A stretch of DNA of 64,000 bases from Paracoccaceae bacterium (GTDB lineage Bacteria > Pseudomonadota > Alphaproteobacteria > Rhodobacterales > Rhodobacteraceae): assembly GCA_035324325.1 (NCBI GenBank), contig DAOLBY010000001.1, forward strand, positions 4,453 through 68,452, read 5' to 3'. The notes beneath the pieces are model-generated. The model was not told the DNA's origin. It did not search any database and was given only the letters and a program-made list of their open reading frames with translations. Positions 1 to 46,258 of this stretch are shown piece by piece. Each line of letters opens with the position of its first letter. Position 1 is the first letter of the stretch. The translations under genes were made by a program, and so were the position numbers.

Positions 1-4433
<4,433 letters not shown>

Positions 4434-22477: not shown

Positions 22478-25400
22478 TCAGAGATCCCAGACCTCGACCG
22501 TGACCGTCGCCCGGGTATAGTTGCCCATGTCGTCGGCAGCCCAGTAGTGGAAGCTGTCGGTGCCGGTGAAGCCGTGGTTCGGCCGGTAGAGCAGCGTCCC
22601 GTCCGCCTGCTGGAAGACATCGCCGTTGCCCGGATCGGTGAAACCGTCCACGGCCAGGTGGCGGTTCTCGGGATCGCGGTCGTTGGCCAGCACGTCGATC
22701 AGCACGTCGAGCCCCGCGACGGTGGCGGCGAAGTCGTTCTGGACGACGGGCGCGGCATTGCCCGGATCATAGCGCCCGTTGTGGGGGACGCCCCAGCTGT
22801 TCAGGTCCCCGTCGGAGATGTTGAGCGTGACCAGGTAGCTGAATTTCAGGAGTTCGCCCGTCGCCCGGTCGGCGACGAGATCGGGGATCAGCGCCACCTT
22901 CCGGCCATCGGCCAGCGTGTAATAGCCCGTCGACCGCAGGAGATCGGGCACCTCCCAGCGATAGATCGTCTGCGGTTCCCATGCCATCTGCCTGGAGGTA
23001 CTCCCGAGCGAGTCGGTCTTGGTGCCGGAGAGCACGAGATCCTGATGGACTGCGAGGGTGACGCTGCCCTGGACGAAGCCCAGCCTGCCCTCGACCAGGT
23101 CGTCCGAACTCATGATCTGGTGGCGGGCGGCGTTGAACCCCTGATAGGCGGTGCCGACACCGGTCATCTCGACATCGATGAGGACGATGCCGAACTGGTT
23201 GTCGGGCACGAAGAAGGTCGGCTGGCGGGAAACGTCGACGCCGGTCCGGAAGCCGTCGATGCTCAGACCGTTCATCACCATGCCGAAGGCATTGCTGCCC
23301 AGGACGAGACCGGCCTGCGCCTCGAACCAGCCGCCGCTGCGGGTGCCGATCAGGTCGAAGTCGAGCATCGTGTAGTGCCCGGTATAGCTGATGTCGGTGC
23401 CCTGGCGGGTCTCCCAGTTCAGGAACCCGTCGAGGACCGTGCGGACGTCGTGGTATTGCGCCGCCACCCCCTTGATGACGATCAGCCCGATCTCGGTTCC
23501 GAAGGCCTCGTTGTCGCGGAAGCCCTGGATCGGCGCCTGGTTGACGGTCACCGTACTTCCGCCATAGCCGATCTCGGGATGGTCGAGGTTCGCCGTCAGC
23601 GGATTGGTCGGGGCCGAGCGGTGCATCCAGACATAGCCATGCGTGGTGTTGACGGCGACGTTCTCGGCCGCCTCGACCAGGCGTCCGGCGAAGAAGAAGC
23701 CGTCGCCGGTGCGGCCGTTGTCGTGGCGTGGCAGGTCATTGGCATGCTTGACCTCCCATTCCCCCCAGCCGATCCCTTCCGAACGGATCGCCATGTTGCG
23801 CAGCCAGATGCCGGTCTCGTCGCCGTCCTCGGCGGCGAAGGCGGCGCCGAAGACGTCGAAGGCCACGTTCTCGATGAAGTCGGCATGGCTCGAATGGTGC
23901 ACGAAGCCCCAGCCGGGCGCGCCCGAGACCGTGTTGCCGAGCGCGATCGCCGGGTTCTCCTGGTCGAGCGTGCCGGTCTTGTGGAAGTGGAAGGAATAGC
24001 GGCCCTTGATGTTGCTGTCGGCCGAGACCGACGAGAGCGCGCCGAGATCGAAGGCCGGGCGTGACTTGTCGGTGCGGCCGAGATCGTCGAAGGCGGCATA
24101 GCGCACGTCGACATCGTCGCTGTGCATGAACATCACGTGGCCGCGGTGATGCACCGCGGTGTCGGCGCCGTTCTCGCTCGCGAAGGTGATGTTGCGCGTC
24201 ATGTTGGCGACATAGGCGAAGAGGTCGTCGCGCGGCGTGTCGTGGTTGTGGACCAGCGCGCGGTCGAGCGTCACCGTGCCGCCGTTGATGGCGACGATCC
24301 GCACCTCCTCGTCCTGGCTCTCGTGATGGACGACCCGGCGCAGCGTGTTGTCCCAGGCCCAGCCGGTCTTGTGCGTGCCGCTGACCACCAGCGTGTCGCC
24401 GACCTGCCAGCCGGTGGGCACCTCGGCCAGCGTGATCGTGGTGTCGCCGCGCATCGGGGCCTCGGCGACCTTGAGGAAGGCGGTCTTCTCGGCACCGTGG
24501 ATCTCCACCGCGCCATGCGAGACCAGCCCGCGCGAGACCAGCATCGGATCCCAGGCGACGTTGATGTTGCCGTTGTCGGCGAACAGGATCTGGACGTCGA
24601 CCCCGGCCTCGATCGGGCGGGCGGCGGTGCCGATCTCGAGCCGGCCGCTGGGCGCCACCACCATCGTGTCGATCACCAGCCGCGTGTCGCGGTCGGTGGC
24701 GAAGGACAGTTCGCCGTCGACCCGCAGGGTGAAGAGCGCGGCATCGCTCTCGCCGTCATAGGTCACCGAGATGCCCTCGGGGATCAGCGCCCGTGCGCCC
24801 TCGCCGGGGATCCGGCCCTGCCACCAGGTCGCCGGATCGAACCAGTCGCCGTCGGCGACGGCGACATGCGTGGCCTCCGCCCGCGGCACCAGCGACAGCA
24901 CCCGGATGTGTTCGTTGGCCATCGCCGCATTGTCGCCATGGGCATGGGTCTCGGGCTGCGCCATCACCGCGGCCACGAAGGCATCGGCCTCGGCCGGATC
25001 CATCGGCGGCGTCGGGCCGTGGTCGTGGCCGCCCCCCGTATCGCCCCCCGTATCGCCCCCCGTATCGCCGCCGCTGCCGCCGCTGCCGCCGTCGCCGGGC
25101 AGCGGGTCGGGGTCGTGGTCATGCCCGTCGCCGGGCAGCGGGTCGGGATCGCTGCCGCAGCCGCAGAGGCAGAGGCAGACGTTGCCGCCATCCTCCGGGC
25201 AGGGCCCCACCTCGCCGGCGTCGATCGGCCCGGCATGGCTGAGGCTCGGGACGCCGACCACGGCGCGCAGCCCGTCGCTGTCGGGCCCCTGCCATTCGAA
25301 GCGCAGGCTCTGGACGCCGAAGTTCTCGAAATAGCGGACCTCGACCTGGTGGGCGCCGGCCTCGAGATCGAGCGTGACCGCGCGTTCGACCGTGGCATGG

Positions 25401-26767
25401 GCGCCGTCGTTGTCGATCACCTGCCGGCCGTTGACGAAGAGCACCGCGCCGTCGTCCGAGGTCAGGAAGAAGGTGTAGCGGCCGGCATTGACCACGTTCA
25501 GGTCGCCGGCGAAGCGTGCGGCGAAGAGGTCGCCGGGGCCGCCCTGCCAGAAGGCCGCCTCGGACTGCAGCCAGTTCAGCGAGGCCACCGTGCCGACGGC
25601 AGCCGGCGTGGCGGTGAAGTCGATCTCGGCCAGGCGCGCCACCGGGGCAGCGAGGGCGAAATACTCGGCATAGAGCCCGGGCCGCAGGGCATCGCCGCTG
25701 CTGCCGTCCTGGTGGCTGAGGCTGCCCTGCGAGATCAGCGCGCGGGCGCCGAAGCTGTCGGGGCCGCGCCATTCCAGCCGCAGGCTCTGGACGCCCCAGT
25801 TCTCGAAGTAGCGGACCTCGATCTGATGGGCGCCGGAGGCGAGGTCGAGCGTGACCATGCGCTCGACCGTGGCATGGGCGCCGTCGTTGTCGATCACCTG
25901 CTGGCCGTTGATGTAGAGCGCCGAGCCGTCGTCCGAGGTCAGGAAGAAGGTGTAGCTGCCGCCGCGCTCGACGTTGAGCTGGCCGGAATAGCGCGCGGCG
26001 AAGAGGTTGATGGGCCCGTCCTGCCAGAACGGCGCGTCGGAGCGCATCCAGTCGAGCCGGTCGACGATGCCGGTGGCCGCGGGCGTGGCGGTGAAGTCGA
26101 TCTGGGCGAGGCTTGCCACCTCGGCGGACAGCCGGAAATAGCTGGCCTGGAGACCGATCTTGCCCGGTTCGGGTTCGGGCTGGGGTTCCGGATCGGGCTC
26201 GGGGGTCGGACCGGGCTCGGGGGTCGGACCGGGCTCGGGCACCGGATCGGGAACCGGATCCGGATTGACCGGAATGGGCTTCATGCTGACCGCCGAGCCG
26301 TCGAGCATCACGCGCTGGTCGCCGGTGTCGGCGCCCTTCCATTCCAGCCGCAGGCTGTGCCGCCCGGTCTGGTCGAAATAGACGACCTCGATGTCATGCA
26401 CCCCGGCCTCGAGCCGGAGGGTCACCCTGCTCTTTTCGATCGTGTCCGAGGACAGGTCGCTGGCGACCAGGAGCACCTCCTGGCCGTTGATGCGCAGCGC
26501 CGCCACATTGTCGGTGCGCAGGAAGAAGGTGTACCTGCCACCGGTGGTGATCGTGAGATCGCCGCTGAAGCGGGCGGCGAAATGATTGACCGCCCCGCCT
26601 TCCCAGAGCGAGGTCTTCATGAGCCCCCAGTGGACCGCGTCGAAGGTATCGACCGCGACCGGGGTCGAGAAGTCGATCTCGTCGAGGCGCTTGATGCTCG
26701 CCGGGATGGTGAAGAACTCGGCCAGGAAGCCGCGCAGGGCCCCGGTTCCCACGGTCTGTATGCTCAT
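22478..26767 (-). CDS. Giant secreted-type protein: 3x PA14, Pro-rich and Cys/His/Asp-rich linkers, G8 domain, parallel beta-helix region, C-terminal cadherin-like domain
   Basis: 1429-aa ORF. PA14-like modules at aa ~10-160, 205-345 and 362-505 (YTFFL.SDDG...L.INGQ.V...LEW.G). G8-like block GDWFDPATWWQGRIPGEGARALIPEG...LRVDGELSF...LEIG at aa ~636-760. C-terminus has VLANDRDPE...GTDSFHYWAADDMGN. No N-terminal signal peptide (MSIQTVGTGALRGFLAEFF). Confidence 0.85.
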   Translation of the reverse strand: MSIQTVGTGALRGFLAEFFTIPASIKRLDEIDFSTPVAVDTFDAVHWGLMKTSLWEGGAVNHFAARFSGDLTITTGGRYTFFLRTDNVAALRINGQEVLLVASDLSSDTIEKSRVTLRLEAGVHDIEVVYFDQTGRHSLRLEWKGADTGDQRVMLDGSAVSMKPIPVNPDPVPDPVPEPGPTPEPGPTPEPDPEPQPEPEPGKIGLQASYFRLSAEVASLAQIDFTATPAATGIVDRLDWMRSDAPFWQDGPINLFAARYSGQLNVERGGSYTFFLTSDDGSALYINGQQVIDNDGAHATVERMVTLDLASGAHQIEVRYFENWGVQSLRLEWRGPDSFGARALISQGSLSHQDGSSGDALRPGLYAEYFALAAPVARLAEIDFTATPAAVGTVASLNWLQSEAAFWQGGPGDLFAARFAGDLNVVNAGRYTFFLTSDDGAVLFVNGRQVIDNDGAHATVERAVTLDLEAGAHQVEVRYFENFGVQSLRFEWQGPDSDGLRAVVGVPSLSHAGPIDAGEVGPCPEDGGNVCLCLCGCGSDPDPLPGDGHDHDPDPLPGDGGSGGSGGDTGGDTGGDTGGGHDHGPTPPMDPAEADAFVAAVMAQPETHAHGDNAAMANEHIRVLSLVPRAEATHVAVADGDWFDPATWWQGRIPGEGARALIPEGISVTYDGESDAALFTLRVDGELSFATDRDTRLVIDTMVVAPSGRLEIGTAARPIEAGVDVQILFADNGNINVAWDPMLVSRGLVSHGAVEIHGAEKTAFLKVAEAPMRGDTTITLAEVPTGWQVGDTLVVSGTHKTGWAWDNTLRRVVHHESQDEEVRIVAINGGTVTLDRALVHNHDTPRDDLFAYVANMTRNITFASENGADTAVHHRGHVMFMHSDDVDVRYAAFDDLGRTDKSRPAFDLGALSSVSADSNIKGRYSFHFHKTGTLDQENPAIALGNTVSGAPGWGFVHHSSHADFIENVAFDVFGAAFAAEDGDETGIWLRNMAIRSEGIGWGEWEVKHANDLPRHDNGRTGDGFFFAGRLVEAAENVAVNTTHGYVWMHRSAPTNPLTANLDHPEIGYGGSTVTVNQAPIQGFRDNEAFGTEIGLIVIKGVAAQYHDVRTVLDGFLNWETRQGTDISYTGHYTMLDFDLIGTRSGGWFEAQAGLVLGSNAFGMVMNGLSIDGFRTGVDVSRQPTFFVPDNQFGIVLIDVEMTGVGTAYQGFNAARHQIMSSDDLVEGRLGFVQGSVTLAVHQDLVLSGTKTDSLGSTSRQMAWEPQTIYRWEVPDLLRSTGYYTLADGRKVALIPDLVADRATGELLKFSYLVTLNISDGDLNSWGVPHNGRYDPGNAAPVVQNDFAATVAGLDVLIDVLANDRDPENRHLAVDGFTDPGNGDVFQQADGTLLYRPNHGFTGTDSFHYWAADDMGNYTRATVTVEVWDL

Positions 26768-27413: not shown

Positions 27414-28970
27414 TCACAGCCCCGGCACGAAGCGCGGCAGGGGGCGCAGGACCTCGGCCATGGCCTGCTGCAGGCGGGCCTCGGCCTCGGCCGCGCCGCC
27501 GGCGCCGATCGGCACGATCAGGCGCACCAGCGCGCTGTCGCTGCGCCCGTTGGTCAGCTTGCCGGCGAGCAGCTGCAGCTTGGCGGTCAGGCCCGAGGCG
27601 GTGCGCCGGCCCTGCTGCTCGAACCAGTAGTAGACCAGCATCCGCTCGGTGCCCTTCTGGATCACCGCGCGGTTGAGGCTGAAGGCGCCCTCGACGGGAT
27701 GCTGCGCCTCGATCCGGCGCAGTTCGGCGATCTCCCAGCCGCCGCCGGGCAGGCAGACCTCGGGCGAATGCACGCCGCCCTGCAGGTCGTCGCGGTACCA
27801 GGCGAGGAAGAGGTCGACCGGCGCCCCGCCCGCCCGGGCGAGCAGCACCGAATGGTAGTCGTCGGCGGCCAGGATGCGCTCGACATCGGGTTCGAGCATG
27901 CGGTGCGGGCCGGCCTGCCAGTCGCCCAACTGCGCCGGGAACAGCGCGAAGGGATCGCGCGTCACCGTCACCGGCGGGCGCCCCGCCGCGGCCAGCGCCC
28001 GCGACGGCTCGATCAGCCGCAGCCGCAGCGCCTGGGTGCCGAGCCCCGCGGTGTCGAGGTCGAGCGCCTCGGCCAGGCCCGGCCGGTCGCGGCGCAGCCG
28101 CAGCATCACCCAGGCCAGCGCGAACAGCAGCAGCACGCAGGACAGGAAGATCACCCAGCCCTCGAAGAAATGGCTGAAGCCCTCGACATGCTCCATCCCC
28201 CAGCGGTCCACGATCACCCCGGCCAGCGCGATCCGCACCGAGTTCATCAGCACCGTGATCGGCGCCGCCGAGACGAGCAGCACCGCCTTGTGCCACATCG
28301 GCCCGCGGTAGAGCACCGCGAAGATGTAGCTGAAGGACAGGATCGGAAACAGGTAGCGCAGCCCCGAGCAGGCCTCGGCCACATGCAGCTTGTAGACCCC
28401 GAGGTCGATGATGTTGCCCTCGAGGAAGACCGGCACGCGCAGCAACTGCAGGAACCACACGCCAAGCTCGGAGGAGATGCCCTGCAGCCAGGTCGAGACC
28501 CCGTAGTAGAGCGCCCCGGGCAGCGGCAGCATGTAGACGAGATGCAGCACCGGCGGCCAGAACCCCCGCCCCTGCCGCCAGCCGAACGCGATCAGCAGGA
28601 TCGCCCCGGCCCAGAGGATCAGCCCGTAGGCGACGATGTCGCCGATGCCGAGCAGCTGCCCCGCCGCGCCGAGCGCCAGCGCCAGGACGAGCAGTGCCAG
28701 CCCCGGGCCGCGGTCGGTCACCGGGCCGGGGATCACCGGCTCGCCCTTCAGCTGGCGCAGGAACAGCAGCAGCGACAGCAGCGGGATCAGCGGCCCGTGG
28801 CTGTATTCCGGCAGCGCCCAGGCCCGCAGCAGTTCGGCCAGCCCGTCGCGGAAGAACAGCCCCGCCCCGGCGACGGCCAGCAGCAGCCAGCCCACACCGG
28901 GGGTGACAAGCCCGCCGAGACGGCGCGGCGCGCGGCGGGAGGGGGCCGGGGAGGGGCCGGTCACGGACAT
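27414..28970 (-). CDS. xrtD: Exosortase fused to an EpsI-family domain (XrtD-like, VPLPA-CTERM-specific by context)
   Basis: ATG 28970..28968; an alternative ATG lies 20 codons upstream at 29030. Exosortase hallmarks are PEYSHGPLIP, catalytic Cys in HVAEACSGLRYL, Arg in VLMNSVRIAL and His in FSHFFEGW. The C-terminal ~200 aa has the EpsI signature HSPEVCLPGGGWEI...YYWFEQQGR. The symbol is assigned from the adjacent VPLPA-type cargo, not from an alignment. Confidence 0.85.
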   Translation of the reverse strand: MSVTGPSPAPSRRAPRRLGGLVTPGVGWLLLAVAGAGLFFRDGLAELLRAWALPEYSHGPLIPLLSLLLFLRQLKGEPVIPGPVTDRGPGLALLVLALALGAAGQLLGIGDIVAYGLILWAGAILLIAFGWRQGRGFWPPVLHLVYMLPLPGALYYGVSTWLQGISSELGVWFLQLLRVPVFLEGNIIDLGVYKLHVAEACSGLRYLFPILSFSYIFAVLYRGPMWHKAVLLVSAAPITVLMNSVRIALAGVIVDRWGMEHVEGFSHFFEGWVIFLSCVLLLFALAWVMLRLRRDRPGLAEALDLDTAGLGTQALRLRLIEPSRALAAAGRPPVTVTRDPFALFPAQLGDWQAGPHRMLEPDVERILAADDYHSVLLARAGGAPVDLFLAWYRDDLQGGVHSPEVCLPGGGWEIAELRRIEAQHPVEGAFSLNRAVIQKGTERMLVYYWFEQQGRRTASGLTAKLQLLAGKLTNGRSDSALVRLIVPIGAGGAAEAEARLQQAMAEVLRPLPRFVPGL

Positions 28971-29216
28971 CGTCGGTCTTTCGCTCGGCGCGCCCGGATG
29001 CGGCGCGGGTTCGGGGGCGGGCGGCATCATAGACGGGGGATCGCGGCAAAACCATGCCCGCCCGGCCCCGCCGCGGCGGGGCCGGGCCGCCGGTTGCGCA
29101 TTCACGAACGATCGGACCCGGATCGCCACAATTCTGCCCGGAATGGGCGCAAATCTCGGCGCCGGGGCGGGGTGGCGCCGGGACGGCGCCGGACAGGACC
29201 GGGAGAGGACGACAGG

Positions 29217-29420
29217 ATGGGCCTTGCAATCGTCGGCACGATCTCCGGCCTCCTCGCCGCGGCGGCGGCGCTGCTGGCCGGACAGCCCTGGTGGATGGCG
29301 CTCGCCCTGCATGCCGGAGCCGGCGCGCTGGCGCTTCTGGCGGCGGCGGCCGTGGTGGCCGCCCGGCGGCCCGGAACCGCGGCCGCACCCGCCGCCGCGC
29401 TTGAATCCACGCCGGGCTGA
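29217..29420 (+). CDS. Possible small 2-TM membrane protein (67 aa)
   Basis: ATG 29217 is preceded by GGGAGAGGACGACAGG. Translation MGLAIVGTISGLLAAAAALLAGQPWWMALALHAGAGALALLAAAAVVAARRPG.... High GC3. It is the tail of the spurious track ORF 26961..29420. No family recognised. Confidence 0.35.
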   Translation: MGLAIVGTISGLLAAAAALLAGQPWWMALALHAGAGALALLAAAAVVAARRPGTAAAPAAALESTPG

Positions 29421-29697
29421 GCCCCGCGGGGCCGCAGATTCGCCCCGCCTTCGCCCCGCGGCCTCCCGGGCAGCGCGGACCGTCCCCGCCGGATCGACAA
29501 TGGCCCGGCCAGGCCGCGACCGTGGAGCCGGCGGCAACCGGCCCCGGCCCGCCGCACAACCCCGGGATGTATCTTCGGCCCGGGCCCCGATGGCCCTTGG
29601 AGTGCGCCGCGGTTTGTGACACATCTCGGGGATGGGGGTGCCTGCGGTATTCGCCGCAGAATTCGTCAATGGTCATTGCGCCTGGGAGCGTTTTCAC

Positions 29698-30351
29698 ATG
29701 TTCGCGCTGAATGGGATCAAGGCACTGGCCGCGGCCCTCGTCCTGTCGGGGGGCCTGGCCGGCCAGGCCGGGGCGGTCACCTACCATTTCGACAACATCA
29801 CCGGCAACAACGCCGAACATGCCGCGGCCGGCGCCGCGCAGCTGTTCCTCGATGTCGACCTGGTGGACGACGCGGTGCATTTCGTGTTCCGCAACGCCGG
29901 ACCGCTGCAGATGACGGTCGCCAACCTCTACATCGACCACGGCACCACCGCGCTCATCCAGAACGCCTCGGTCGGCGCGGCGTCGGAGGGGGTGGAGTTC
30001 GCGGGCGGCGGCACGCCCGTCAACGTGCCCCGCGGCAACACCGTCGGCTTCTACGCCGACGACACCTTCTACACCACCCGGCCCCGGGTGCATTACGGGA
30101 TCAACGTGCTCGAGTTCCAGACGATCGTCTACGAACTCGTCGCCGGGACGACCTTCTCCGACCTGATCGCGGCGCTCGATGCGGGCAACCTGCGGGCCGG
30201 CCTGCATGTGATCAACTTCATCGGCGGCGGCCGGGAAAGCTTCGTCAGCGGGGCGCAGGTCGTCCCCATCCCGCTGCCGGCCACGGGCCTGCTGCTGGTC
30301 GGCGCGCTCGGCGGGCTGGTGCTGCTGCGCCGCCGCCGTCCGGCGGCCTGA
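29698..30351 (+). CDS. VPLPA-CTERM sorting-domain protein, paralogue 1
   Basis: ATG 29698 (SD GGGAGCG). Signal peptide MFALNGIKALAAALVLSGGLAGQAGA. C-terminus VPIPLPATGLLLVGALGGLVLLRRRRPAA, i.e. motif, TM helix and Arg cluster. Confidence 0.85.
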   Translation: MFALNGIKALAAALVLSGGLAGQAGAVTYHFDNITGNNAEHAAAGAAQLFLDVDLVDDAVHFVFRNAGPLQMTVANLYIDHGTTALIQNASVGAASEGVEFAGGGTPVNVPRGNTVGFYADDTFYTTRPRVHYGINVLEFQTIVYELVAGTTFSDLIAALDAGNLRAGLHVINFIGGGRESFVSGAQVVPIPLPATGLLLVGALGGLVLLRRRRPAA

Positions 30352-30404
30352 GGGCGCGCGGGGGGCTTCGCCCCGCGGCCCGCACGACCTTCGCAAGGCA
30401 GAGC

Positions 30405-30430
30405 AGGCGGTCCCCCGGGGCCGCCTTTCG
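30405..30430 (+). terminator. Hairpin downstream of VPLPA paralogue 1 (weak intrinsic-terminator candidate)
   Basis: AGGCGGTCCCC-CGGGG-CCGCCT followed by TTCGCGTT. An equivalent hairpin follows paralogue 2. Confidence 0.35.
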
Positions 30431-30783
30431 CGTTCCGGGCCGCGCGGGCCGGGGCGCGGGCGGCTCCGCCCGCCTGAATCCCCGGCCCGAAACCCCGGCC
30501 TGAATCCCCGGCCCGAAACCCCCGCCGATTCGCCCTTTCCCGCGCGCCGCGGCCTCCTGCGCGCCGCAAACCGCCGCGAACCGTTGCCGCCCGGTCGACA
30601 ATCGGCCGGAACCGGCGGAACCCTGGCCCGGATGGCGAAGGGATCCGGCTCGCCGCGCAACCCGGGGATGTATCTTCGGCCCGGGGCGCCCCGGCGCTTG
30701 GACCGTCGCACGGATTGTGGCAATACTGCGGCAGGGTCTGTGCAACACCCTGTACCGTCTATTGCGCCCGAAGGAGATTTCGC

Positions 30784-31437
30784 ATGTTCGCGCTGGATCG
30801 GATCAAGACATTGGCCGCCGTGGCGGCACTCGTGCTTTCGGGGGGCCTGGCGGAGCGGGCCGAGGCGGTCACCTACAACTTCGAGAACATCACCAACAAC
30901 AACGCCGCGGATGCCGCGGCCGGCGAGGCGCAGCTGTTCCTCGACGTGAATCTGGTCGGCGGCGCGGCGCATTTCGTGTTCAGCAACCTCGGCCCGCTGC
31001 AGATGACGATCGCCAACATCTACTTCGATTTCGGCCTCACCAGCCTGCTCGGCGGCGGATCGGTCGGCGCGGCCTCGCCGGGGGTAACCTTCGTGGCGGG
31101 CGGCGCGCCCCCCGACGTGCCTGGCGGCGCGCCCATCGGCTTCACGTCCGATGACCGCTATTCCGCGACCAACCCCGCACCGCACAACGGGGTCAACGTT
31201 CCCGAGTTCCAGACCATCGTCTACGAACTCCTGGCCGGGACGACCTTCGCCGACCTGATCGCGGCGCTCGATGCGGGCAGCCTGCGCACCGCCATCCATG
31301 TGATCAACTACGCAAGCGGCGGCAGCGAGAGCTTCGTGAACGCCCCGACCCCGATCCCGCTGCCGGCCACGGGCCTGCTGCTGATCGGCGCGCTCGGCGG
31401 GCTGGTGCTGGTGCGGCGGCGCCGCCCGGCGGCCTGA
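30784..31437 (+). CDS. VPLPA-CTERM sorting-domain protein, paralogue 2
   Basis: ATG 30784 (SD GAAGGAG). Signal peptide MFALDRIKTLAAVAALVLSGGLAERAEA. C-terminus TPIPLPATGLLLIGALGGLVLVRRRRPAA. Collinear similarity to paralogue 1 along its whole length. Confidence 0.85.
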   Translation: MFALDRIKTLAAVAALVLSGGLAERAEAVTYNFENITNNNAADAAAGEAQLFLDVNLVGGAAHFVFSNLGPLQMTIANIYFDFGLTSLLGGGSVGAASPGVTFVAGGAPPDVPGGAPIGFTSDDRYSATNPAPHNGVNVPEFQTIVYELLAGTTFADLIAALDAGSLRTAIHVINYASGGSESFVNAPTPIPLPATGLLLIGALGGLVLVRRRRPAA

Positions 31438-31491
31438 GGGCGCGCGGGGGGTCCCCGCGGCCCGACCCGGCAACACAACCAGGATACGGCG

Positions 31492-31515
31492 CAGGCGGCC
31501 CCCCAGGGCCGCCTG
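31492..31515 (+). terminator. Hairpin downstream of VPLPA paralogue 2
   Basis: Perfect 9-bp stem CAGGCGGCC / GGCCGCCTG with a 6-nt loop. The T-tract is poor (TCGCGTTCC). Confidence 0.4.
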
Positions 31516-31551
31516 TCGCGTTCCGGGGGGACGGGGTTCGGGAAGCCGGCG

Positions 31552-31647
31552 TCAGCAGCAGGGCGGGCGCGGGCCGTCGAAGCCGCGCAGCAGCATCGCC
31601 GCGCAGAGGCAAAGGCCGAGGCCGATCAGGACAGCGCCGGTCAGCAT
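31552..31647 (-). CDS. Possible 31-aa hydrophobic peptide (below ORF-track size cutoff)
   Basis: ATG 31647..31645 is preceded by GAAGGGGAGGCGGGCGA (strong SD). Translation MLTGAVLIGLGLCLCAAMLLRGFDGPRPPCC then stop. No family recognised. Confidence 0.3.
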   Translation of the reverse strand: MLTGAVLIGLGLCLCAAMLLRGFDGPRPPCC

Positions 31648-32013
31648 TCGCCCGCCTCCCCTTCGCGACGCGCCTGCCACCGCGGCAGACGGAACCGGAT
31701 CCAGCCAAGCGCCGAATCATGGCGGAACCCGGGCGCCGCCGTGGCCTTGCCGTGGCCTTGCCCGCGAACCGCCGGCACGTTGACGCCGCGGCAACAGATA
31801 CACCCCTTGCGTGAAACTGTCGCCGCACCGGCCGTGCCCGCACAACCCCTGCCTGAAAAGCGCCCGCCCGGAAAGGTTTCGCTTTCTCCGCGCGGGGCGA
31901 TCGGCCATTCTCTGCCCGAGGTCGCGTCCGTTCGGGCGGGCCTTTGCCACAAGCCGATAGCGTGACCCATAGCGCGACCCGATGTGCGACAACCTGATTT
32001 CGGAGTGCAAGGA

Positions 32014-32742
32014 ATGAATGTGACCAGTACCCTGCGCGGCGGCATTCTGGCGCTCGCGCTCGCCTTCGGGGCCGGAACGGCCGGGGCCACGCCCATCCAG
32101 GTCGAACAGCAGGTGACCGGCGGCTGGAACGCGGTCTTCGGCGGCAACGGCTATGCCAATGCGACGATCAGCGGCCCGGCGCTGGCCGGCGGATCCTCGG
32201 TCACCGTCGCCGCGGGCGGCTTCGCGCTGACCGCCGAGGGGCTCGGCGATTTCGTGGCCTTCTGCCTCGACATCAACACCTGGCTCTCGCTGCCCTCGTA
32301 TTATGCCGTCACCGAAACGCCCTTCTCGGGCGGGCCGGCGCTGCTGACCACCACGCAGCGCAACAACATCCAGGCGCTGTTCAACACCGGATACGCGGGG
32401 CTGAACCTCGGGTCGAACACCGATTCCGCGGCCTTCCAGATCGCGCTCTGGGAAGTGCTCTACGACAGTTCCGGCAGCCTCAACCTCGGCGCGGGCAATT
32501 TCATCGTGTCGAGCACGACGGCGGTGATCAACCGCGCCGCGGGCCTCCTGGCCGGGCTCGCCGGTCCGGCGACCGGCGTCTACGAACTGACCTGGCTGCA
32601 GTCGCTCGACGGCCCGGATGCCAACAGCTACCGCGACAGCCAGAACCTCGTCACCGCCACGCCGATCCCGCTGCCGGCAGGCGGGCTTCTCCTGGTCTCG
32701 GCGCTCGGCCTGATGTTCCTGCGCCGGCGCCGGACCGCCTGA
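32014..32742 (+). CDS. VPLPA-CTERM sorting-domain protein 3 with thioester-domain-like Cys and Gln motifs
   Basis: ATG 32014 (AAGGA just upstream). Signal peptide MNVTSTLRGGILALALAFGAGTAGA. C-terminus TPIPLPAGGLLLVSALGLMFLRRRRTA. Internal DFVAFCLDINTW and DSAAFQIALWEVLYD. Confidence 0.8.
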   Translation: MNVTSTLRGGILALALAFGAGTAGATPIQVEQQVTGGWNAVFGGNGYANATISGPALAGGSSVTVAAGGFALTAEGLGDFVAFCLDINTWLSLPSYYAVTETPFSGGPALLTTTQRNNIQALFNTGYAGLNLGSNTDSAAFQIALWEVLYDSSGSLNLGAGNFIVSSTTAVINRAAGLLAGLAGPATGVYELTWLQSLDGPDANSYRDSQNLVTATPIPLPAGGLLLVSALGLMFLRRRRTA

Positions 32743-32833: not shown

Positions 32834-33442
32834 TCAGGGCCCGCCTCGCCGCCGCCGCAGCAGCACCAGCGCCGTCGCCGCGATCAGGACGGGCCCCGTC
32901 CATTCCAGCAGCGTGTTGGCGCGCAGCCCCAGGACCGTCCCCGGCACCGTCCCCGGCACCGGCAGGCCGAGCATCGCGTCGAAGCCGTGGAAGCCGACGG
33001 CGCGCATCATCACGAAGCCGGTGACGAAGACCAGCCCCGCGACCGGCAGGGCCGAGCGCGCCCAGGTGCCGCGCAGCACCGCCAGCAGCACCGCCAGCAG
33101 CACGAGCCCCAGGCCGGCGATGGCGATCAGGAAGGCCGCCTGCACCGGGCGGCGGCCCTCGTACCAGCCCTGCGCCAGCGCCGTGCAGCGCCCCGCCGCG
33201 GTCAGCGCCGACTGCAGGTCGAGCTGCTTGTTGACCGCCAGCGCCGCCATCAGCACCGCCACCAGCCCCCAGAAGGCGCGCTCGCGCCCGCGGCTGGCGC
33301 GGGGGAAGGGCGCGGCGCGGGCCAGCGCCAGCGCCAGCAGCGCCGTCGCCGCATAGACCGCGACCGTCGTCCAGCCCTGCCAGCCGGGGTCGCCGATCAC
33401 CGGGCGCCAGGTCTCGAGGGTGCAGGCCAGGATGCCGCGCAT
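32834..33442 (-). CDS. Hypothetical polytopic membrane protein
   Basis: ATG 33442..33440 (MRGILACTLETWRPVIGDPGWQGWTTVAVYAATALL...). 5-6 hydrophobic segments. The upstream part of track ORF 32834..33841 is in the repA 3' region. No family recognised. Confidence 0.55.
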   Translation of the reverse strand: MRGILACTLETWRPVIGDPGWQGWTTVAVYAATALLALALARAAPFPRASRGRERAFWGLVAVLMAALAVNKQLDLQSALTAAGRCTALAQGWYEGRRPVQAAFLIAIAGLGLVLLAVLLAVLRGTWARSALPVAGLVFVTGFVMMRAVGFHGFDAMLGLPVPGTVPGTVLGLRANTLLEWTGPVLIAATALVLLRRRRGGP

Positions 33443-33465: not shown

Positions 33466-34437
33466 TCAGCCGCCGGCCCGGGTGGCGCGCAGCCAGCCCA
33501 GGAAGGCGCGGTCGGGGCTGCGCAGCCGCGGCCGGCCCGACCCGTCCCAGAAGCCGCGCCAGGCGGCGGCGAGGGCATGGACATCGGCGCCGGGGGCCAG
33601 CGCGCGGGCGGCATCCAGCGTCTCGGGCGCCAGATGCGGCCCCTCGCCGGGCAGCAGCACCGGCGCGCGCGGCGCCACGCGCAGGATGTCGCCGGGCATC
33701 TCCTCCAGCCGGTAGTCGGGCAGGCGGTCCTCGCGGATGATCTCGCGCAGCATGGCGCGGAAGACGCGCAGCGGGCTGGCCGAGCCCGACTTCTTGGCCA
33801 GCGTGGCGACCGAGACGCGCCATTCGGGCTGCCGGCCGCAATGCTTGCGCGACAGTTCGTAGATGCGCCGCTCCAGCGGCTTGCGCAGGCCGAAGTAGTC
33901 GCGGCTGAGCGTCAGCACCGAGCGCGACAGCACCGCCTGGAACAGCCAGTCCGACAGCGTGACCGAGACCGAGACCATGCGCCCGGCGCGGGTGCGGCGC
34001 ACGATCTCCCAGGCCTCGATCAGGCCGAAGCCGCTGGTGATCTCGGCCTCGCCGGTGACGATGTTGGTGGTGATGCGCGTGCCCACCAGCCGCTCGAAGG
34101 CCTCGCGCAGCCGGGCATAGCCGTCGCCCGAGGTCTCGCGGTGGGTGGCGGTCAGCAGGTCGTGCGCGGTCAGCGTCAGCCGGCGCGAGACGGCGCGGCC
34201 GGCGTTCAGCGCCGCCATCAGCTGGCTGATGCAGAAGATCAGGATGTCGGCATCGAAGATCGTCGCCCGGCCGCGCACCGAGGGGGTGACGGTGATCGAG
34301 CAGCCGTTGTGCTCGTAGCTGAGCACGCGGCGGTCGGGCCGGGTCGAGAGCGAGAAGAGCGGATGCTCCATCGAGGCGAGGTCGTGCTTGGGCACCGCCG
34401 CGAAGAGGTCGCAGACGAAGAAGTCCTGCGTCACCAC
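33466..34437 (-). CDS. repA: Plasmid replication initiator RepA (replication initiator protein A family)
   Basis: Family blocks FVCDLFAAVPKHDLASMEHPLFSLSTRPD..LSYEHNGCSITVTPSVRGRATIFDADILIFCISQL. The GTG at 34437 is preferred because the 69 codons up to the ATG at 34644 have clearly lower GC3 (about 83% versus about 97%) and are Arg/Gly-rich. The longer ORF 33466..34644 remains possible. Confidence 0.8.
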   Translation of the reverse strand: MVTQDFFVCDLFAAVPKHDLASMEHPLFSLSTRPDRRVLSYEHNGCSITVTPSVRGRATIFDADILIFCISQLMAALNAGRAVSRRLTLTAHDLLTATHRETSGDGYARLREAFERLVGTRITTNIVTGEAEITSGFGLIEAWEIVRRTRAGRMVSVSVTLSDWLFQAVLSRSVLTLSRDYFGLRKPLERRIYELSRKHCGRQPEWRVSVATLAKKSGSASPLRVFRAMLREIIREDRLPDYRLEEMPGDILRVAPRAPVLLPGEGPHLAPETLDAARALAPGADVHALAAAWRGFWDGSGRPRLRSPDRAFLGWLRATRAGG

Positions 34438-34659
34438 CGCCGGTGCCCGGCCGGCCGCCCGGCCCTCGGCGGTGCCCCCCGCCCGTGCGCTGCCCGTTGC
34501 GGAGGTGGATGCCACCCGCCCTGCCCCTTCCTGCCCCGGGGGCCGCCTCCGGCCCGTTTCCCCGCTCGCCTCCCGCAGCCGCGTGTGCGCGCGCGCGCCC
34601 CGGGGTTCCCCCCTTCGCCGGCCCGGCGGGATTCGTCGTTTCATTGACGCCCAGAGTAG

Positions 34660-34668: not shown

Positions 34669-34732
34669 GGCGCAGCGTCCAGCCTCGCGACCATCCGGGG
34701 CGGCGGCGGGGGGCCGGACCGGCGCCCCGATC

Positions 34733-34792
34733 GGGGGATCGGAGTCGCCTCGACGGGGGATCGGAGTCGCGTCATCGTGGGATCGGAATCGC
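34733..34792 (+). repeat. Three direct iteron-like repeats (oriV)
   Basis: GGGGGATCGGAGTCGC at 34733-34748 and 34755-34770, and GGGATCGGAATCGC at 34779-34792. Spacing is 22 and 24 bp. Each contains GATC and a GANTC site. Followed by an AT-rich patch GTAACAGACTAGATAACGCAGATCTAACGG at 34858-34887. Confidence 0.7.
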
Positions 34793-35001
34793 CCTGGCCC
34801 GGAACACCCCCGGAAAACCCTTGGCACTCAGGGAGATGACGGCAGGGCACGGCACCCGTAACAGACTAGATAACGCAGATCTAACGGCATGCAGGCGCCC
34901 GGGGGCTGCCGCTGCCCCCGGGCGGGGCGGCAGCGCGGCGGGCCAGGGCGGCAAGACTGCCGAGAAAAGCGGCACGGACCCCGGCCATGTCCGCTTTTTC
35001 C

Positions 35002-35051
35002 TTCCATGTATCGCGTTTTCCGGTATCTTGCCGGAAACGCGATACATGGAA
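35002..35051. promoter_or_regulatory. 21-bp inverted repeat upstream of parA (operator or centromere-like candidate)
   Basis: TTCCATGTATCGCGTTTTCCGG - TATCTTG - CCGGAAACGCGATACATGGAA. One extra T in the left arm. Ends 68 bp before the parA ATG. Confidence 0.55.
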
Positions 35052-35118
35052 GGAGATCGCGCATGGGGCGGCAGGCAGGAACGGGCAGGCGGGGCCTTGC
35101 GGCCGGGCGGCGGCGGCC

Positions 35119-36501
35119 ATGAGCATCGAGGCGCTTCCCCCCTATTTCAACATCGTGCCCGACCGGGCGCTGGCCGGGCTGGGGCCGCCGGCGGGCACCA
35201 CCGATCTGGCCGCCATCGCCGCCGCCTGCCGCCAGGGCCGCGAGGACCTGGCGGCGCGCGGGCTCGACGAGGCCGGGGCGCGGCGGCTGCGGCAGTTCTC
35301 GACCTGGGAGATCACCAAATACCTCATCCCGGTGGCGCCGGCGCATTTCCGTCGGGTGCTGCGGCTCAACCCCGACCTGCCGCAGGGCCGCAGCGAGACC
35401 GAGGGCGGCATGCGCTGGTTCACCCTCGACGAGGTGCTGCGGCTGCGGGCGCATTTCGGCGCCGAGGGGTCGAAGGCCAAGGAATACCTGCCCTACCGGC
35501 CGCGCGGCCTGCCGGCCAAGATCGTCGCCGTGGCCAATTTCAAGGGCGGCGTCGGCAAGACCTCGACGGCGGCGCATCTGGCGATGTCGGCCGCGCTCGA
35601 CGGCTACCGGGTGCTGGTCGTCGACCTCGACAGCCAGGGCTCGATGTCCTCGATCTTCGGCGCCCGGGTGGCCGACGAATGGGGCACGGTGTTTCCGCTG
35701 ATCGCGCGCCACTACGCCGAGGCGCTGCGCGCCGAGAACCAGCGCCGCATCGACCGGGGCGAGGCGCCGCAGCCGCTCGACGACACGCTGGCCGAGGCGC
35801 TGAAGCTCGGGGTCGGGGATGTCATCCGCCCCACCCACTGGCCCAACATCGACCTCATCGGGGCGCAGCTCAACCTCTACTGGGCCGAGTTCCAGATCCC
35901 CGTCTGGCGCATGGCCTCGCGCGGCTGGAAGCTGTGGGACGCGCTGACCGAGATGCTGGCCGCCGGCGGGGTGCTCGACCGCTACGACCTCGTCTTCCTC
36001 GATACCCCGCCGGCGCTCGGCTACCTGACGATCAACGGGCTGGCGGCGGCCGACATCCTGCTCGTGCCCTTCGGCGCCTCCTTCCTGGAGTTCGATTCCA
36101 CCGGGCGCTTCTTCGACATGCTGCATGCCACCTTCGCCTCGATCGAGGAGGGCGAGAACATCGCCGCCCGCGCCCTCGGCCGGCCCGAGCTGCGCTTCGA
36201 ATGGGACGCGGTGCGCGCCGTGATCACCCGCTACGACGCCAGCCAGCAGGCCGAGATGGCGGGGCTGATCCAGGCCTGGATGGGGCGCATCCTGTCGCCG
36301 CACCGGCAGGACTTCACTGCCCTGATCGGCCAGGCCGGCGAGCAGGTGCACGGCATCTACGAGGCCGACTACCGCGACTTCAACCGCGAGACCTATGCCC
36401 GCGGGCGCGAGACCTTCGACCAGACCTATGCCGCCTTCAAGACGCTGCTCCTGGGCATCTGGCGGCGCGAGGAACTGGCGGCCGGACGGGCGGCGGAATG
36501 A
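35119..36501 (+). CDS. parA: ParA-family partition ATPase with N-terminal extension
   Basis: ATG 35119 (MSIEALPPYFN...). Deviant Walker A VANFKGGVGKTSTAAHL, plus VVDLDSQGS and LVFLDTPPALG. Confidence 0.9.
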   Translation: MSIEALPPYFNIVPDRALAGLGPPAGTTDLAAIAAACRQGREDLAARGLDEAGARRLRQFSTWEITKYLIPVAPAHFRRVLRLNPDLPQGRSETEGGMRWFTLDEVLRLRAHFGAEGSKAKEYLPYRPRGLPAKIVAVANFKGGVGKTSTAAHLAMSAALDGYRVLVVDLDSQGSMSSIFGARVADEWGTVFPLIARHYAEALRAENQRRIDRGEAPQPLDDTLAEALKLGVGDVIRPTHWPNIDLIGAQLNLYWAEFQIPVWRMASRGWKLWDALTEMLAAGGVLDRYDLVFLDTPPALGYLTINGLAAADILLVPFGASFLEFDSTGRFFDMLHATFASIEEGENIAARALGRPELRFEWDAVRAVITRYDASQQAEMAGLIQAWMGRILSPHRQDFTALIGQAGEQVHGIYEADYRDFNRETYARGRETFDQTYAAFKTLLLGIWRREELAAGRAAE

Positions 36502-36536: not shown

Positions 36537-36694
36537 ATGCGCCGTCCCCTGCCCCGCGTCCTGCTGCCCGTCCTGCCGCGCCTCCCGGGCCGGCCGCCGT
36601 CTTCGCCCGATCTTCACCTCCGGCCCCGCAGTCTCGGCGCCCGACCCGCCGCAGGAGACCGCAGATGCGCCGCAACCGGAAAGGCCGAACCGCC

Positions 36695-37771
36695 ATGGCC
36701 CGCCGCCGCCTGACCCCCGCCCGCACCGATCTTGCCCTGCCCGAGGCCCGGCCCCCCGCGCCGGCCGCCGCCGCGGCGCTGATCGGCGCGCCGATCGCGC
36801 GCGTCGCCGGCGAGGCCGCGGCCACCGCGGCGCTGCACGAGGTCTCGGCCGAACTGGCCGCGGCGCGGTCCGAGGGGCGGCTGGTGCTGCGCCTGCCGCT
36901 CGCGGCGGTCGAGACCGGCTGGCTGATGCGCGACCGCGCCGGCATCGACGAGGAGGACCTGGCGCCGCTGCTCGCCTCGCTGGCCGCGCATGGCCAGCGC
37001 ACCCCGGTCGAGGTGGCCGAGATCGGCCCCGGGCGCTACGGGCTGATCTCGGGCTGGCGGCGGATGACGGCGCTGGCGCGGCTGCGGGCCGAGACCGGCG
37101 AGGCGCGCTTCGGCGAGGTGCTGGCGCTGCTGCGCCGGCCCGAGGGCGCCGGCGCGGCCTATGTCGCCATGGTCGAGGAGAACGAGATCCGGCTGGGGCT
37201 GAGCCATTACGAGCGCGCCCGCATCGTCGCCCGGGCCGCCGAGGGCGGCGTCTTCGAGACCGACCGCGCGGCGCTGCAGGCGCTCTTTGCCGCCGCCAGC
37301 CGGGCCCGGCGCTCCAAGATCGGCTCGTTCCTGGCCATCGTGCGGGCGCTCGACCCGGTGCTGCGCTTCCCCGCCGCGATCCCCGAACGCCTGGGCCTGG
37401 CGCTGGCGCGCTGGATCGAGACCGCGCCGGCGGCGGCGGCGCGGCTGGCCGCCGAGCTGGCCGCCGATCCCGCCCCCGATGCCGCCGCCGAACTGGCGCG
37501 GCTGGCGGCGGCGCTGCGCCCCGGTGCCGCCGCGGGTCCCTCTCCCGGCCCCTCCCCCGGGGCGGCGGCCGGGCCGGGGACGGAGGACGGGACGGCGCCG
37601 GGGGGCGGGACCGGTGACGAAGCCCGCACCGAGGGGGCGGTGGAACTGCGCCCCGGGCTCTGGCTGCGCGCCGAGGGCGGCTTCCTGCGGCCGCGGCTGA
37701 CGCTCTGGGGGCCGGCGCTCGACCCGGGGCTGCGCGAGCGGCTGGAACACTGGCTGCGCGATGGCGGCTGA
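36695..37771 (+). CDS. parB: ParB-family partition protein
   Basis: ATG 36695 is preceded by GGAAAGG; an alternative ATG is at 36665. ParB N-domain features RTPVEVAEIGPGRYGLISGWRRMTALARL and ENEIRLGLSHYERA. Confidence 0.85.
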   Translation: MARRRLTPARTDLALPEARPPAPAAAAALIGAPIARVAGEAAATAALHEVSAELAAARSEGRLVLRLPLAAVETGWLMRDRAGIDEEDLAPLLASLAAHGQRTPVEVAEIGPGRYGLISGWRRMTALARLRAETGEARFGEVLALLRRPEGAGAAYVAMVEENEIRLGLSHYERARIVARAAEGGVFETDRAALQALFAAASRARRSKIGSFLAIVRALDPVLRFPAAIPERLGLALARWIETAPAAAARLAAELAADPAPDAAAELARLAAALRPGAAAGPSPGPSPGAAAGPGTEDGTAPGGGTGDEARTEGAVELRPGLWLRAEGGFLRPRLTLWGPALDPGLRERLEHWLRDGG

Positions 37772-45340: not shown

Positions 45341-45365
45341 GAGGGCCCCCACCCGCGGCCCCGGC

Positions 45366-46007: not shown

Positions 46008-46258
46008 CGCCGTCTCTCTTTCCTCTGCAGTGCCCGCCGTCCGCCCGGTCGCCCCGCGTCTGGTCGCGTCGCGCCCGGCCGCCCGGGCCGGGGTCGCGCC
46101 CCCGTTCCTGCCCCCGGTTCCAGTCGGCAGCCAGTCTAGGGCGATGCGGCCGGGACCGAAAGAAAAACCCGCCGCCGCCCCCGTGCCGCCGCGGTGATCG
46201 TGCCGGCGCGGCCACAAGCGCCGTGGCGCGGCGGCCGGCAGGGCGGGGGGGAGGGCGG

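Follow-up and report, generated by a model that had tools for sequence, protein, structure and literature searches.

A probable XrtD/VPLPA-CTERM sorting locus with a thioester-domain-like cargo protein beside a RepA-ParAB module in a Paracoccaceae bacterium

Introduction

The exosortase XrtA (EpsH) and its PEP-CTERM proteins have been described from exopolysaccharide (EPS) loci (Haft et al. 2006, PMC1569441). Another exosortase, XrtD, annotated as specific for the VPLPA-CTERM signal, is recorded on plasmids such as pRLO149_63 of R. litoralis Och 149 (NC_015729), which carries parA, parB, two VPLPA-CTERM genes, manC, xrtD and the rfb operon, and pRSMBB of Rhodovulum sp. MB263, which carries parB, parA, repA, EPS genes, xrtD and a gene for a beta-helix protein. 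RepA-I "biofilm plasmids" of roseobacters have as their core a dTDP-rhamnose operon (rmlABCD) and a capsule-type ABC exporter, and the paper that describes them mentions neither exosortases, CTERM proteins nor a linkage of xrtD to RepA (Michael et al. 2016, PMC5030684). Here we analyze a 64,000-nt stretch of DNA from a Paracoccaceae bacterium (GCA_035324325.1, contig DAOLBY010000001.1, positions 4,453 to 68,452; hereafter the window), in which the region 27414-32742 very probably holds an XrtD/VPLPA-CTERM sorting system with three substrates (cargo 1, cargo 2 and cargo 3), placed beside the RepA-ParAB module of an extrachromosomal EPS replicon. The locus is an ordinary member of a known, uncharacterized sorting system and carries one probable sequence error. 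One of its products, cargo 3, has features of thioester domains (TEDs), which have been reported exclusively from Gram-positive bacteria (Walden et al. 2015, PMC4450167).

Results

Assignment of the exosortase to XrtD

The open reading frame (ORF) at 27414..28970 on the minus strand (xrtD) encodes 518 amino acids (aa) from an ATG (MSVTGPS...) and contains the motifs AEACSGL, NSVRI and HFFEGW as well as HSPEVCLPGGGWEI. Its product scored 597.7 bits with the NCBIfam model TIGR04152 for XrtD (cutoff 400) over model positions 1-486 of 486, whereas the next-best exosortase models, XrtW (207.7 bits, cutoff 425) and XrtA (137.2 bits, cutoff 208), both remained below their cutoffs. The exosortase/archaeosortase signature TIGR04178 was matched at residues 196-289 (71.7 bits, cutoff 23). 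The multi-pass membrane catalytic domain (exosortase/EpsH, PF09721, 215.6 bits) covers residues 34-288 (28107..28871, minus strand), followed by a C-terminal EpsI-type (DUF3485) domain at residues 326-514 (27429..27995, minus strand; PF11984, 171.4 bits; TIGR02914, 134.7 bits). A first-pass annotation, made from the letters of this DNA alone, had recognized the exosortase Cys/Arg/His contexts and a fused EpsI-type domain in the 518-aa protein; both are present where it placed them, and the exosortase D and EpsI models both match the gene.

For a sample of homologues, one genome per GTDB species was scanned, yielding 227 relatives, from which 80 were kept (L001-L080; 57-72% identity). Nearly all come from Rhodobacterales or unclassified metagenome-assembled genomes, and one is labelled Labrys. 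Cys201 (AEACSGL), Arg246 (NSVRI) and His267 (HFFEGW) are invariant in all 81 aligned sequences (the 80 homologues and the window protein), as are His401 and Cys406 of the EpsI domain. Because the TIGR04152 match runs end to end, the rival families score far below their cutoffs and these residues are invariant, the sequence-based assignment of the 27414-28970 product to XrtD is firm. A database look-up returned no exact record for the 518-aa XrtD, the 240-aa form of cargo 3 or the 425-aa ATPase.

Three tailed proteins on the strand opposite xrtD

On the plus strand lie the genes of cargo 1 (29698..30351, 217 aa), its paralogue cargo 2 (30784..31437, 217 aa) and cargo 3 (32014..32742, 242 aa); the first coordinate of each pair is the likely start and the second the stop. 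All three products appear to be secreted, with signal peptides that, judged by eye from the sequence, end after AGA, AEA and AGA (next residue V, V and T). Their C-terminal tails (VVPIPLPATGLLLVGALGGLVLLRRRRPAA, TPIPLPATGLLLIGALGGLVLVRRRRPAA and TPIPLPAGGLLLVSALGLMFLRRRRTA; coding positions 30265-30348, 31351-31434 and 32662-32739) are built alike from (V/T)PIPLPA, 16-18 hydrophobic residues and RRRR, all within the last ~30 residues. The three secreted proteins with a PIPLPA motif, a transmembrane (TM) helix and RRRR that had been noted opposite the exosortase gene are thus present. A six-frame scan of the 64 kb for the tripartite tail returned three ORFs only, namely cargo 1, 2 and 3, and their clustering is therefore not an artefact of composition. 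They had also been called immediately adjacent to the exosortase gene; adjacent they are, but not abutting, with a 727-bp spacer between xrtD and cargo 1 that includes a called 67-aa ORF.

The three tails did not fare equally with TIGR03370, the VPLPA-CTERM model, whose curated cutoff is 25.35 bits. Cargo 2 passed it (28.8 bits for the whole protein, 32.8 for the tail alone) and cargo 1 was borderline, just below the cutoff as a whole protein (24.6 bits) and above it with the tail alone (28.7 bits). The earlier view that all three tails are of the VPLPA/PEP-CTERM kind holds in this sense for two of them, and for cargo 3 it has to be argued from architecture and family. Cargo 3 has a hydrophobic segment shorter by one residue, and PAGG stands where the others have PATG. 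Its relatives in Ruegeria bear the NCBI name 'VPLPA-CTERM sorting domain-containing protein', and among the 144 closest cluster representatives of its family all but about 10 have xP(V/L/I)P(L/A/V)-type tails. We count cargo 3, with its divergent VPLPA-type tail, as a putative substrate because of the tripartite architecture and these family tails, not because of its TIGR03370 score.

Comparison with XrtD plasmids, XrtA loci and biofilm plasmids

A tblastn search of PLSDB with XrtD found the gene on 24 Rhodobacterales plasmids, many of them 52-90 kb in size, as well as a single partial match to an unannotated record of Bacillus velezensis. The annotation 'xrtD: VPLPA-CTERM-specific exosortase XrtD' is present on 23 of the 24. 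A plasmid-borne exosortase with VPLPA-CTERM neighbours, as the first-pass annotation proposed, is accordingly real but already annotated in RefSeq on cultured strains. Since xrtD is annotated on 23 PLSDB plasmids and the arrangement on pRLO149_63 is known, the XrtD system and its plasmid location are already catalogued; the subsystem is annotated but unstudied, and the cargo trio is local. As one more plasmid-borne XrtD locus beside two dozen annotated ones, the window changes little.

The plasmid XrtD systems of pRLO149_63, pRSMBB and the Jannaschia sp. CCS1 plasmid share with the window an exosortase of the same subfamily (57-67% identity) and length class with a fused EpsI domain, and there, too, xrtD stands beside a RepA/ParAB module among polysaccharide genes. 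On pRLO149_63 the likeness extends to two VPLPA-CTERM genes between parB and xrtD. However, the adjacent cargo on pRLO149_63 and pRSMBB belongs to other families, with neither the cargo 1/2 nor the cargo 3 profile matched in the two stretches. The window further differs from these systems in having no rhamnose (rfb) operon, in a 45-nt gap in xrtD, and in carrying sub-threshold XrtA-like accessory genes together with a type I secretion system. Across the 80 species, a RepA (RPA-family) homologue was found within 8 kb of xrtD in about 22 and a ParA homologue in about 17. With about a quarter of the species showing xrtD within 8 kb of repA, the gene is recurrently tied to RepA-type replicons, and its linkage to the replication module is unusually tight.

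Compared with XrtA loci, the window has the same exosortase Cys/Arg/His set with an EpsI partner, and the same order of motif, TM helix and Arg-rich tail in the substrates. The EPS setting is also alike, with a Poly_export protein, a chain-length determinant and P-loop kinase, a large tetratricopeptide repeat (TPR) protein, an ExeA-like ATPase and an AMP-ligase/acyl carrier protein (ACP). The differences are that the XrtA model reaches 137 bits (cutoff 208) and all accessory proteins stay below cutoff, that the signal is PLPA rather than PEP, that EpsI is fused rather than separate, and that the PrsK/PrsR regulator and the sigma-54 promoter signal were not found. To judge from this gene content, the locus may work like the XrtA/EpsH EPS loci without belonging to the XrtA system. 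The EPS loci that house XrtD are complete and parallel the XrtA system.

Like the RepA-I biofilm plasmids (Michael et al. 2016, PMC5030684), the window represents a RepA-type Rhodobacterales replicon with about two dozen genes for polysaccharide synthesis and export. A RepA initiator (PF10134, 328.4 bits) with adjacent ParAB, as on RepA-I plasmids, is found in it. Among the Pfam-annotated genes of the window, there are no rml genes and no group-F capsule ABC exporter.

Cargo 3 resembles Gram-positive thioester domains

Three motifs characterize TEDs: a strand holds [YFL]C-phi-zeta, the central helix TQxx-phi-W, and a late strand phi-Q-zeta-phi-phi, which includes the thioester Gln (Walden et al. 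2015, PMC4450167). The same order is seen in the AlphaFold2 (AF2) model of cargo 3 (predicted local distance difference test score (pLDDT) 83.3, predicted template modelling (TM) score (pTM) 0.79), where F-C84-L-D ends strand 78-84 (FCLD; Cys84 codon 32263-32265, plus strand), F-Q142-IAL-W146 lies in helix 135-150 (FQIALW; Gln142 codon 32437-32439, plus strand) and S-Q210-NLV lies at strand 212-217 (SQNLV; codon of the predicted thioester Gln210, 32641-32643, plus strand). The helical motif differs in its first residue, which is F and not T. The mature protein has a single Cys.

In the 26 relatives from a first search with cargo 3, the Cys of FxAFCLD and the Gln and Trp of SAxFQxALWE are invariant. 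When the family profile was run against 1.84 billion cluster representatives, 4,912 reached a threshold of E<=1e-3 and 191 one of E<=1e-30; of the 150 listed, nearly all have lengths of 160-330 aa, and the hosts are Rhodobacterales and many uncultured bacteria. The Cys motif was present in 140, the helical motif in 142 and the thioester-Gln motif in 124 of the 144 family representatives. Cys84 is invariant in family alignments A2 and A3 and nearly invariant in the 136-sequence alignment A4, while Gln142 is invariant and Gln210 nearly invariant across the family. One member, a 3220-aa DUF11-repeat protein of Pirellulaceae (P0071), contains three copies of the cargo 3 domain, an adhesin-like architecture.

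Three independent methods placed thioester domains first. Among 24,736 Pfam families, TED (PF08341) matched cargo 3 over profile positions 1-74 of 102 (17.5 bits, E 0.006), and relatives gave the same match, 14 out of 20 at E<=1 and 17 out of 136 at E<=0.01 (best E 0.00024, sub-threshold); no other body domain matched more than one relative. Foldseek comparison of the model with 350,542 PDB chains ranked FNE of S. equi first (5dcq_D, probability 0.98), followed by 5dcq_E and by Cpa/Spy0125 (2xid_B), and the next hit had a probability of 0.02. With the 136-sequence profile, the best matches among 177,635 PDB sequences were SfbI-TED (5a0l, E 0.019) and then Cpa-TED (4c0z). The SfbI alignment spans both reactive motifs, namely the Cys motif YQAYCFNL and the thioester-Gln motif YQNLLSAEYVP (sQnLVtaspVP in the profile).

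The evidence is sub-threshold on each measure: the Pfam score of 17.5 bits fails the gathering threshold of 22, the Foldseek TM scores are 0.36-0.42 (query-normalized values may be depressed by the signal peptide and tail, both part of the query), and the PDB profile match has an E value of 0.019. The likeness could accordingly be superficial, cargo 3 being a non-covalent matrix or binding protein without a thioester and with its Cys and Gln used, for example, in metal or ligand binding. The sub-threshold scores and the few family members (17 of 136) with a Pfam TED match at E<=0.01 speak for this alternative. We nevertheless consider it less likely, since the three methods agree on the first rank, the SfbI alignment takes in both reactive motifs, the one Cys of the mature protein is invariant or nearly so in the family alignments and the three-copy Pirellulaceae protein is built like an adhesin. 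Homology of cargo 3 to thioester domains is therefore likely, and cargo 3 may quite possibly form an actual thioester. Whether the family as a whole comprises real Cys-Gln thioester proteins, which would be the first Gram-negative thioester 'harpoons', in a minimal one-domain form delivered by exosortase and not by sortase, is evenly poised. No family member is named 'thioester' in any source checked, and our literature search found no thioester domain with a PEP-CTERM signal or, in a looser search, from Proteobacteria.

The Gram-positive TED adhesins SfbI (5a0l), Cpa/Spy0125 (2xid, 4c0z) and FNE (5dcq) are the best structural and PDB sequence matches of cargo 3, and like it they have an N-terminal signal peptide and a C-terminal sorting signal for a membrane Cys transpeptidase (cleavage of cargo 3 being predicted). 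In contrast, cargo 3 comes from a Gram-negative alphaproteobacterial host and uses VPLPA-CTERM/exosortase in place of LPXTG/sortase. It has no stalk or isopeptide domains, its sorting motif following within about 7 residues after the domain, it stays below the Pfam TED threshold, and its thioester is predicted only. The first-pass statement that no function is known for the cargo folds needs qualification for cargo 3, which is thioester-domain-like.

If the thioester is real, cargo 3 could lock the cell covalently to a surface or cross-link protein to an amino-sugar-containing exopolysaccharide, the latter being conceivable because the locus encodes a DegT aminotransferase. This would offer a covalent chemistry for the cohesion of marine biofilms or flocs and open a first way to the function of the XrtD system, and it would be the first mechanistic clue to the surface products of exosortase systems in abundant marine surface colonizers. 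A large unnamed family of exosortase substrates with the hallmarks of thioester adhesin domains is in itself a useful product. The thioester-like cargo is a good lead that lay outside the original observation.

A 45-nt gap in xrtD at an assembly breakpoint

Compared with sister assemblies and homologues, xrtD lacks 45 nt (15 codons, FVSAGLAAAWAAVPE, the core of TM helix 9) at the junction 27980..27981; on the coding strand the missing bases read ...GCCGCGGGGTTCGTCTCGGCGGGGCTGGCGGCGGCCTGGGCGGCGGTGCCCGAGCGCCCG.... The encoded protein reads 'SRALAAAG-RPPVTV' at this point, and in the alignment it is short by about 15-17 residues near residue ~330, where all 80 homologues have a hydrophobic helix. 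The absent segment is the ninth TM helix, the linker between the exosortase and EpsI domains. The best 19-residue Kyte-Doolittle hydropathy of the linker is 0.58 as encoded and rises to 1.81 when the 15 residues are restored.

Five independent assemblies of one population conflict at 27980/27981. The contigs of L082, L083 and L092 end exactly at window position 27978-27980, two of these three ends extending a few codons into the missing helix (GFVSA...), and the window is joined across the site. Sister assembly L081 has 242 extra bases there, including ten Ns and about 150 nt of unrelated coding-looking sequence (TRFHFPSEGEWTIIHGG...), and on both sides of its N-gap the flanks read ...ALAAAGFVSAGLAAAWAAVPERPPVTV.... 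The stretch of the missing helix is ~90% GC. The position is a systematic assembly breakpoint, and the simplest and most likely reading of the gap is a mis-join by the assembler in a very G+C-rich stretch. The reading frame of xrtD in the window thus hides a probable assembly error that removes one TM helix, and intact XrtD is probably 533 aa long.

Taken at face value, XrtD as encoded lacks TM helix 9, and if this loss were real the EpsI domain would lie on the wrong side of the membrane. The gene could then be decaying or inactive, with a cytoplasmic EpsI domain and with the tailed proteins either processed by another exosortase or left anchored in the inner membrane. Such a reading can point to the hydrophobic stretch that all 80 homologues have and the window protein lacks, to a linker with no hydrophobic peak, and to the preserved reading frame, as would be seen in a natural deletion allele. 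It is nonetheless improbable: four further assemblies of the same population break at the same nucleotide, three of them running a few codons into the missing helix, which at ~90% GC is a signature of assembler trouble, and the remainder of xrtD is intact with every catalytic residue present.

Proposed route of the cargo and points that weigh against it

With XrtD restored by the missing helix, the system would act as follows. Each cargo would be made with a Sec signal peptide and the C-terminal (V/T)PIPLPA, helix and RRRR, as read from the sequence, and after export the tail would, as in other members of these families, retain the protein in the inner membrane. Conservation suggests that XrtD is a polytopic membrane enzyme relying on its invariant Cys/Arg/His set, and by analogy with sortase and archaeosortase A it may cut at PLPA through a Cys acyl-enzyme. 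The new C-terminus would then, again by analogy, be handed to an acceptor or released, bringing the cargo to the cell surface or the EPS matrix. The EpsI-type domain, predicted to be held in the periplasm by TM helix 9, could help in the handling of substrate or acceptor. As a speculative last step, the predicted Cys84-Gln210 thioester of cargo 3 would bind an amine on a target surface or matrix polymer covalently. The scheme follows what is known of sortases, archaeosortase A and exosortases (Haft et al. 2006, PMC1569441; reportedly also Haft 2012, J Bacteriol).

Several observations weigh against a sorting system with these three substrates, and the earlier label 'dedicated' for the cargo genes goes beyond what a 64-kb stretch can show. 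A tailed ORF was found within 8 kb of xrtD at only 21 of the 80 loci, a relative of cargo 3 at 2 loci and one of cargo 1/2 at none; adjacency of the cargo is therefore not a general rule. With TIGR03370, cargo 3 was not matched as a whole protein, and its tail alone reached 10.3 bits, below the cutoff. A literature search retrieved no experimental work on an XrtD-type exosortase and found VPLPA-CTERM in one paper, mentioned in passing, and we infer the cleavage site, acceptor and final location of XrtD substrates. As for the replicon, plasmid and chromid are both compatible with a 137-kb sister contig that is not closed.

Set against these points, the distance from the Pro-rich motif to the helix is fixed in all three cargo proteins and in hundreds of family members, and the bodies of both cargo families are kept while the tails switch between the VPLPA type and the PEP-CTERM type. 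That the tails are plain membrane anchors, leaving inner-membrane proteins that face the periplasm and lie near xrtD by coincidence, is very improbable, for although the cargo 3 tail falls below the model, generic TM-plus-basic tails weakly match many sorting models (LPXTG_anchor and MYXO-CTERM included) and most xrtD loci have no tailed gene nearby, the motif-to-helix distance is fixed, a body kept through changes of tail type is what exosortase substrates are expected to show, two tails pass the curated TIGR03370 threshold, and the tail DNA of cargo 1 and cargo 2 is more alike than the rest of the two genes.

Cargo 1 and cargo 2, a tandem pair from a widespread family

The proteins of cargo 1 and cargo 2 share 68% aa identity, and their genes form a 1.09-kb tandem duplication (29452-30439 and 30543-31527) that takes in about 150 nt upstream and, downstream, a 37-nt GC hairpin of terminator-like form (30403-30439 and 31491-31527). 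DNA identity is 94% in the 102 nt coding for the tail and 78% in the gene body, which fits selection or gene conversion acting on the sorting signal. In the spacer between the two genes, a 13-nt unit (CCGGCCTGAATCC / CCGGCCCGAAACC) is repeated in tandem about four times (30469-30520).

A five-sequence profile of the mature domain found at least 554 proteins of about 210 aa in Albidovulum, Defluviimonas, Myxococcales and Gammaproteobacteria. Their tails are of the PEP-CTERM or the VPLPA type, and the conserved motif in which they end, ...G(I/V)HV.GF..GGSESF..., gives the 'GGSESF' family the name used here. A single-sequence search had returned 6 proteins, and the rarity that this implied was a sensitivity artefact. 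For the body of cargo 1/2, no Pfam or NCBIfam family and no PDB relative was found, the profile matches being merely tail-driven or due to chance. The AF2 model of cargo 1, built from a 6-sequence alignment, has a pLDDT of 59, and Foldseek matched it to generic beta-sandwiches. Cargo 1 and cargo 2 are thus members of a widespread uncharacterized cargo family, for which the low-confidence model suggests a beta-sandwich fold.

An upstream motif common to all three cargo genes was considered and rejected, as the approximately 150 nt in question are shared by cargo 1 and cargo 2 through the duplication and not by cargo 3. A promoter and terminator scan of 28.9-33.5 kb gave nothing above chance, and the 37-nt GC hairpin is known only as a repeat. 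In floc formers, PEP-CTERM genes are RpoN-dependent. Sigma-54 promoters were discarded as a candidate here, because a search for TGGCAC-N5-TTGCW with at most 2 mismatches gave 19 matches where chance predicts 18, and no cargo gene had one upstream. At the gathering threshold, Rfam had no match anywhere in the 64-kb window, leaving the long intergenic regions without a known riboswitch or small RNA.

The replication module and neighbouring small genes

Directly beside the cluster lies a replication module consisting of a RepA replication initiator of the RPA family (33466..34644, minus strand; PF10134), parA (35119-36501, plus strand; Pfam CbiA/AAA_31) and parB (36665-37771, plus strand; Pfam ParB_N); the parA/parB region also gave sub-threshold NCBIfam RepA/RepB partition matches. 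Between repA and parA, a putative origin/centromere region (34732..35061) is marked by iteron-like direct repeats, three in number and 22 nt long (34732-34797), and by an inverted repeat of 27 nt (34992-35061), relatively A+T-rich; the window has about 73% G+C. From their position between repA and parA, these repeats are candidate origin and centromere/operator sites. The set had been placed about 4.5 kb from a plasmid origin; the putative origin is indeed near, yet the distance is about 2 kb to cargo 3 and about 5.8 kb to the start of xrtD. The suggestion that the set is mobile as a unit found no backing, with no transfer genes among the window genes examined and 22 of the 25 XrtD-matching PLSDB records typed non-mobilizable.

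Together, repA and the ParA-type ATPase gene show about 81% DNA identity to Rhodovulum and Cereibacter plasmids. In a DNA comparison of 27.0-37.8 kb with plasmids, the repA-parA module alone matched, and the xrtD-cargo part had no close DNA relative. The 137-kb sister contig mentioned above, DAOLAW010000001.1, belongs to the near-identical sister assembly GCA_035324855.1.

Two small membrane proteins, one of them putative, are encoded around the cargo genes. A 202-aa multi-pass protein (32834..33442, minus strand) matched no Pfam or NCBIfam family, and its homologues (31-50% identity) are immediate neighbours of xrtD in L002, L006 and L010 and are found no more than about 4 kb away in L015; it may be an unrecognized accessory gene of the XrtD system. 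The 67-aa ORF in the spacer (29217..29420, plus strand), which has two predicted TM helices and a plausible ribosome-binding site and is called in four assemblies, matched no protein family, and its status is uncertain. Weakly similar small ORFs are found beside xrtD in L047, L055, L067 and L071 (E 2e-7 to 3e-3, low-complexity).

Exopolysaccharide context of the window

The 64-kb window is a single exopolysaccharide locus. It encodes at least 8 glycosyltransferases (GT2, GT4, GT61 and WecG), an acetyltransferase, an oxidoreductase-epimerase fusion, a Wzy-like protein, a methyltransferase, a 2-oxoglutarate (2OG) oxygenase, a DUF6077 protein and a PglK/MsbA-like ABC exporter. Beyond the replication module are a type I secretion system and a rhomboid protease, followed further right by a Poly_export protein, a PrsT-like TPR protein and a pepcterm_ATPase-like protein, and at the right end by Wzz/GNVR with a P-loop kinase, DegT and a fatty-acyl-AMP ligase (FAAL)-ACP protein.

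Relatives of XrtA-system accessory proteins are present at sub-cutoff scores, one at 105.8 bits (cutoff 180), the PrsT-like TPR protein at 190 (cutoff 312) and the pepcterm_ATPase-like protein at 262.6 (cutoff 324.5). These sub-threshold XrtA/PEP-CTERM accessory relatives (export protein, PrsT-like TPR protein, ExeA-like ATPase, chain-length determinant and P-loop kinase) occupy 43910-50264 and 49958-52868. The set suggests a distinct, uncurated 'XrtD-system' version of the XrtA families.

Directly downstream of xrtD, a gene at 22478..26767 (minus strand) encodes a 1429-aa protein in which Pfam recognizes three PA14 domains and, after a Pro-rich linker, G8, a CEMIP-like beta-helix and a C-terminal cadherin-like/Big_9 domain; there is no sorting tail. 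Homologues of this protein were found within 8 kb of xrtD in 9 of the 80 genomes. Export by the type I secretion system nearby, or a role as an enzyme that processes polysaccharide, is possible for it. The beta-helix protein of Rhodovulum pRSMBB, one gene beyond xrtD, has a similar position.

The rhomboid-family protease (43200-43808, minus strand), beside a TolC-like gene, scored 45.5 bits with the rhombosortase model TIGR03902, below its threshold of 84. The left edge of the window (1-4433, minus strand) encodes a type I polyketide synthase (KS-AT-KR-DH..., 2251 aa in the sister contig), and the right edge (61972-63975, minus strand) a luciferase-like/FAAL/ACP fusion. A lipid or acyl moiety, destined for the polysaccharide or for the anchoring of proteins, may be the product of the polyketide synthase and the FAAL-ACP fusion.

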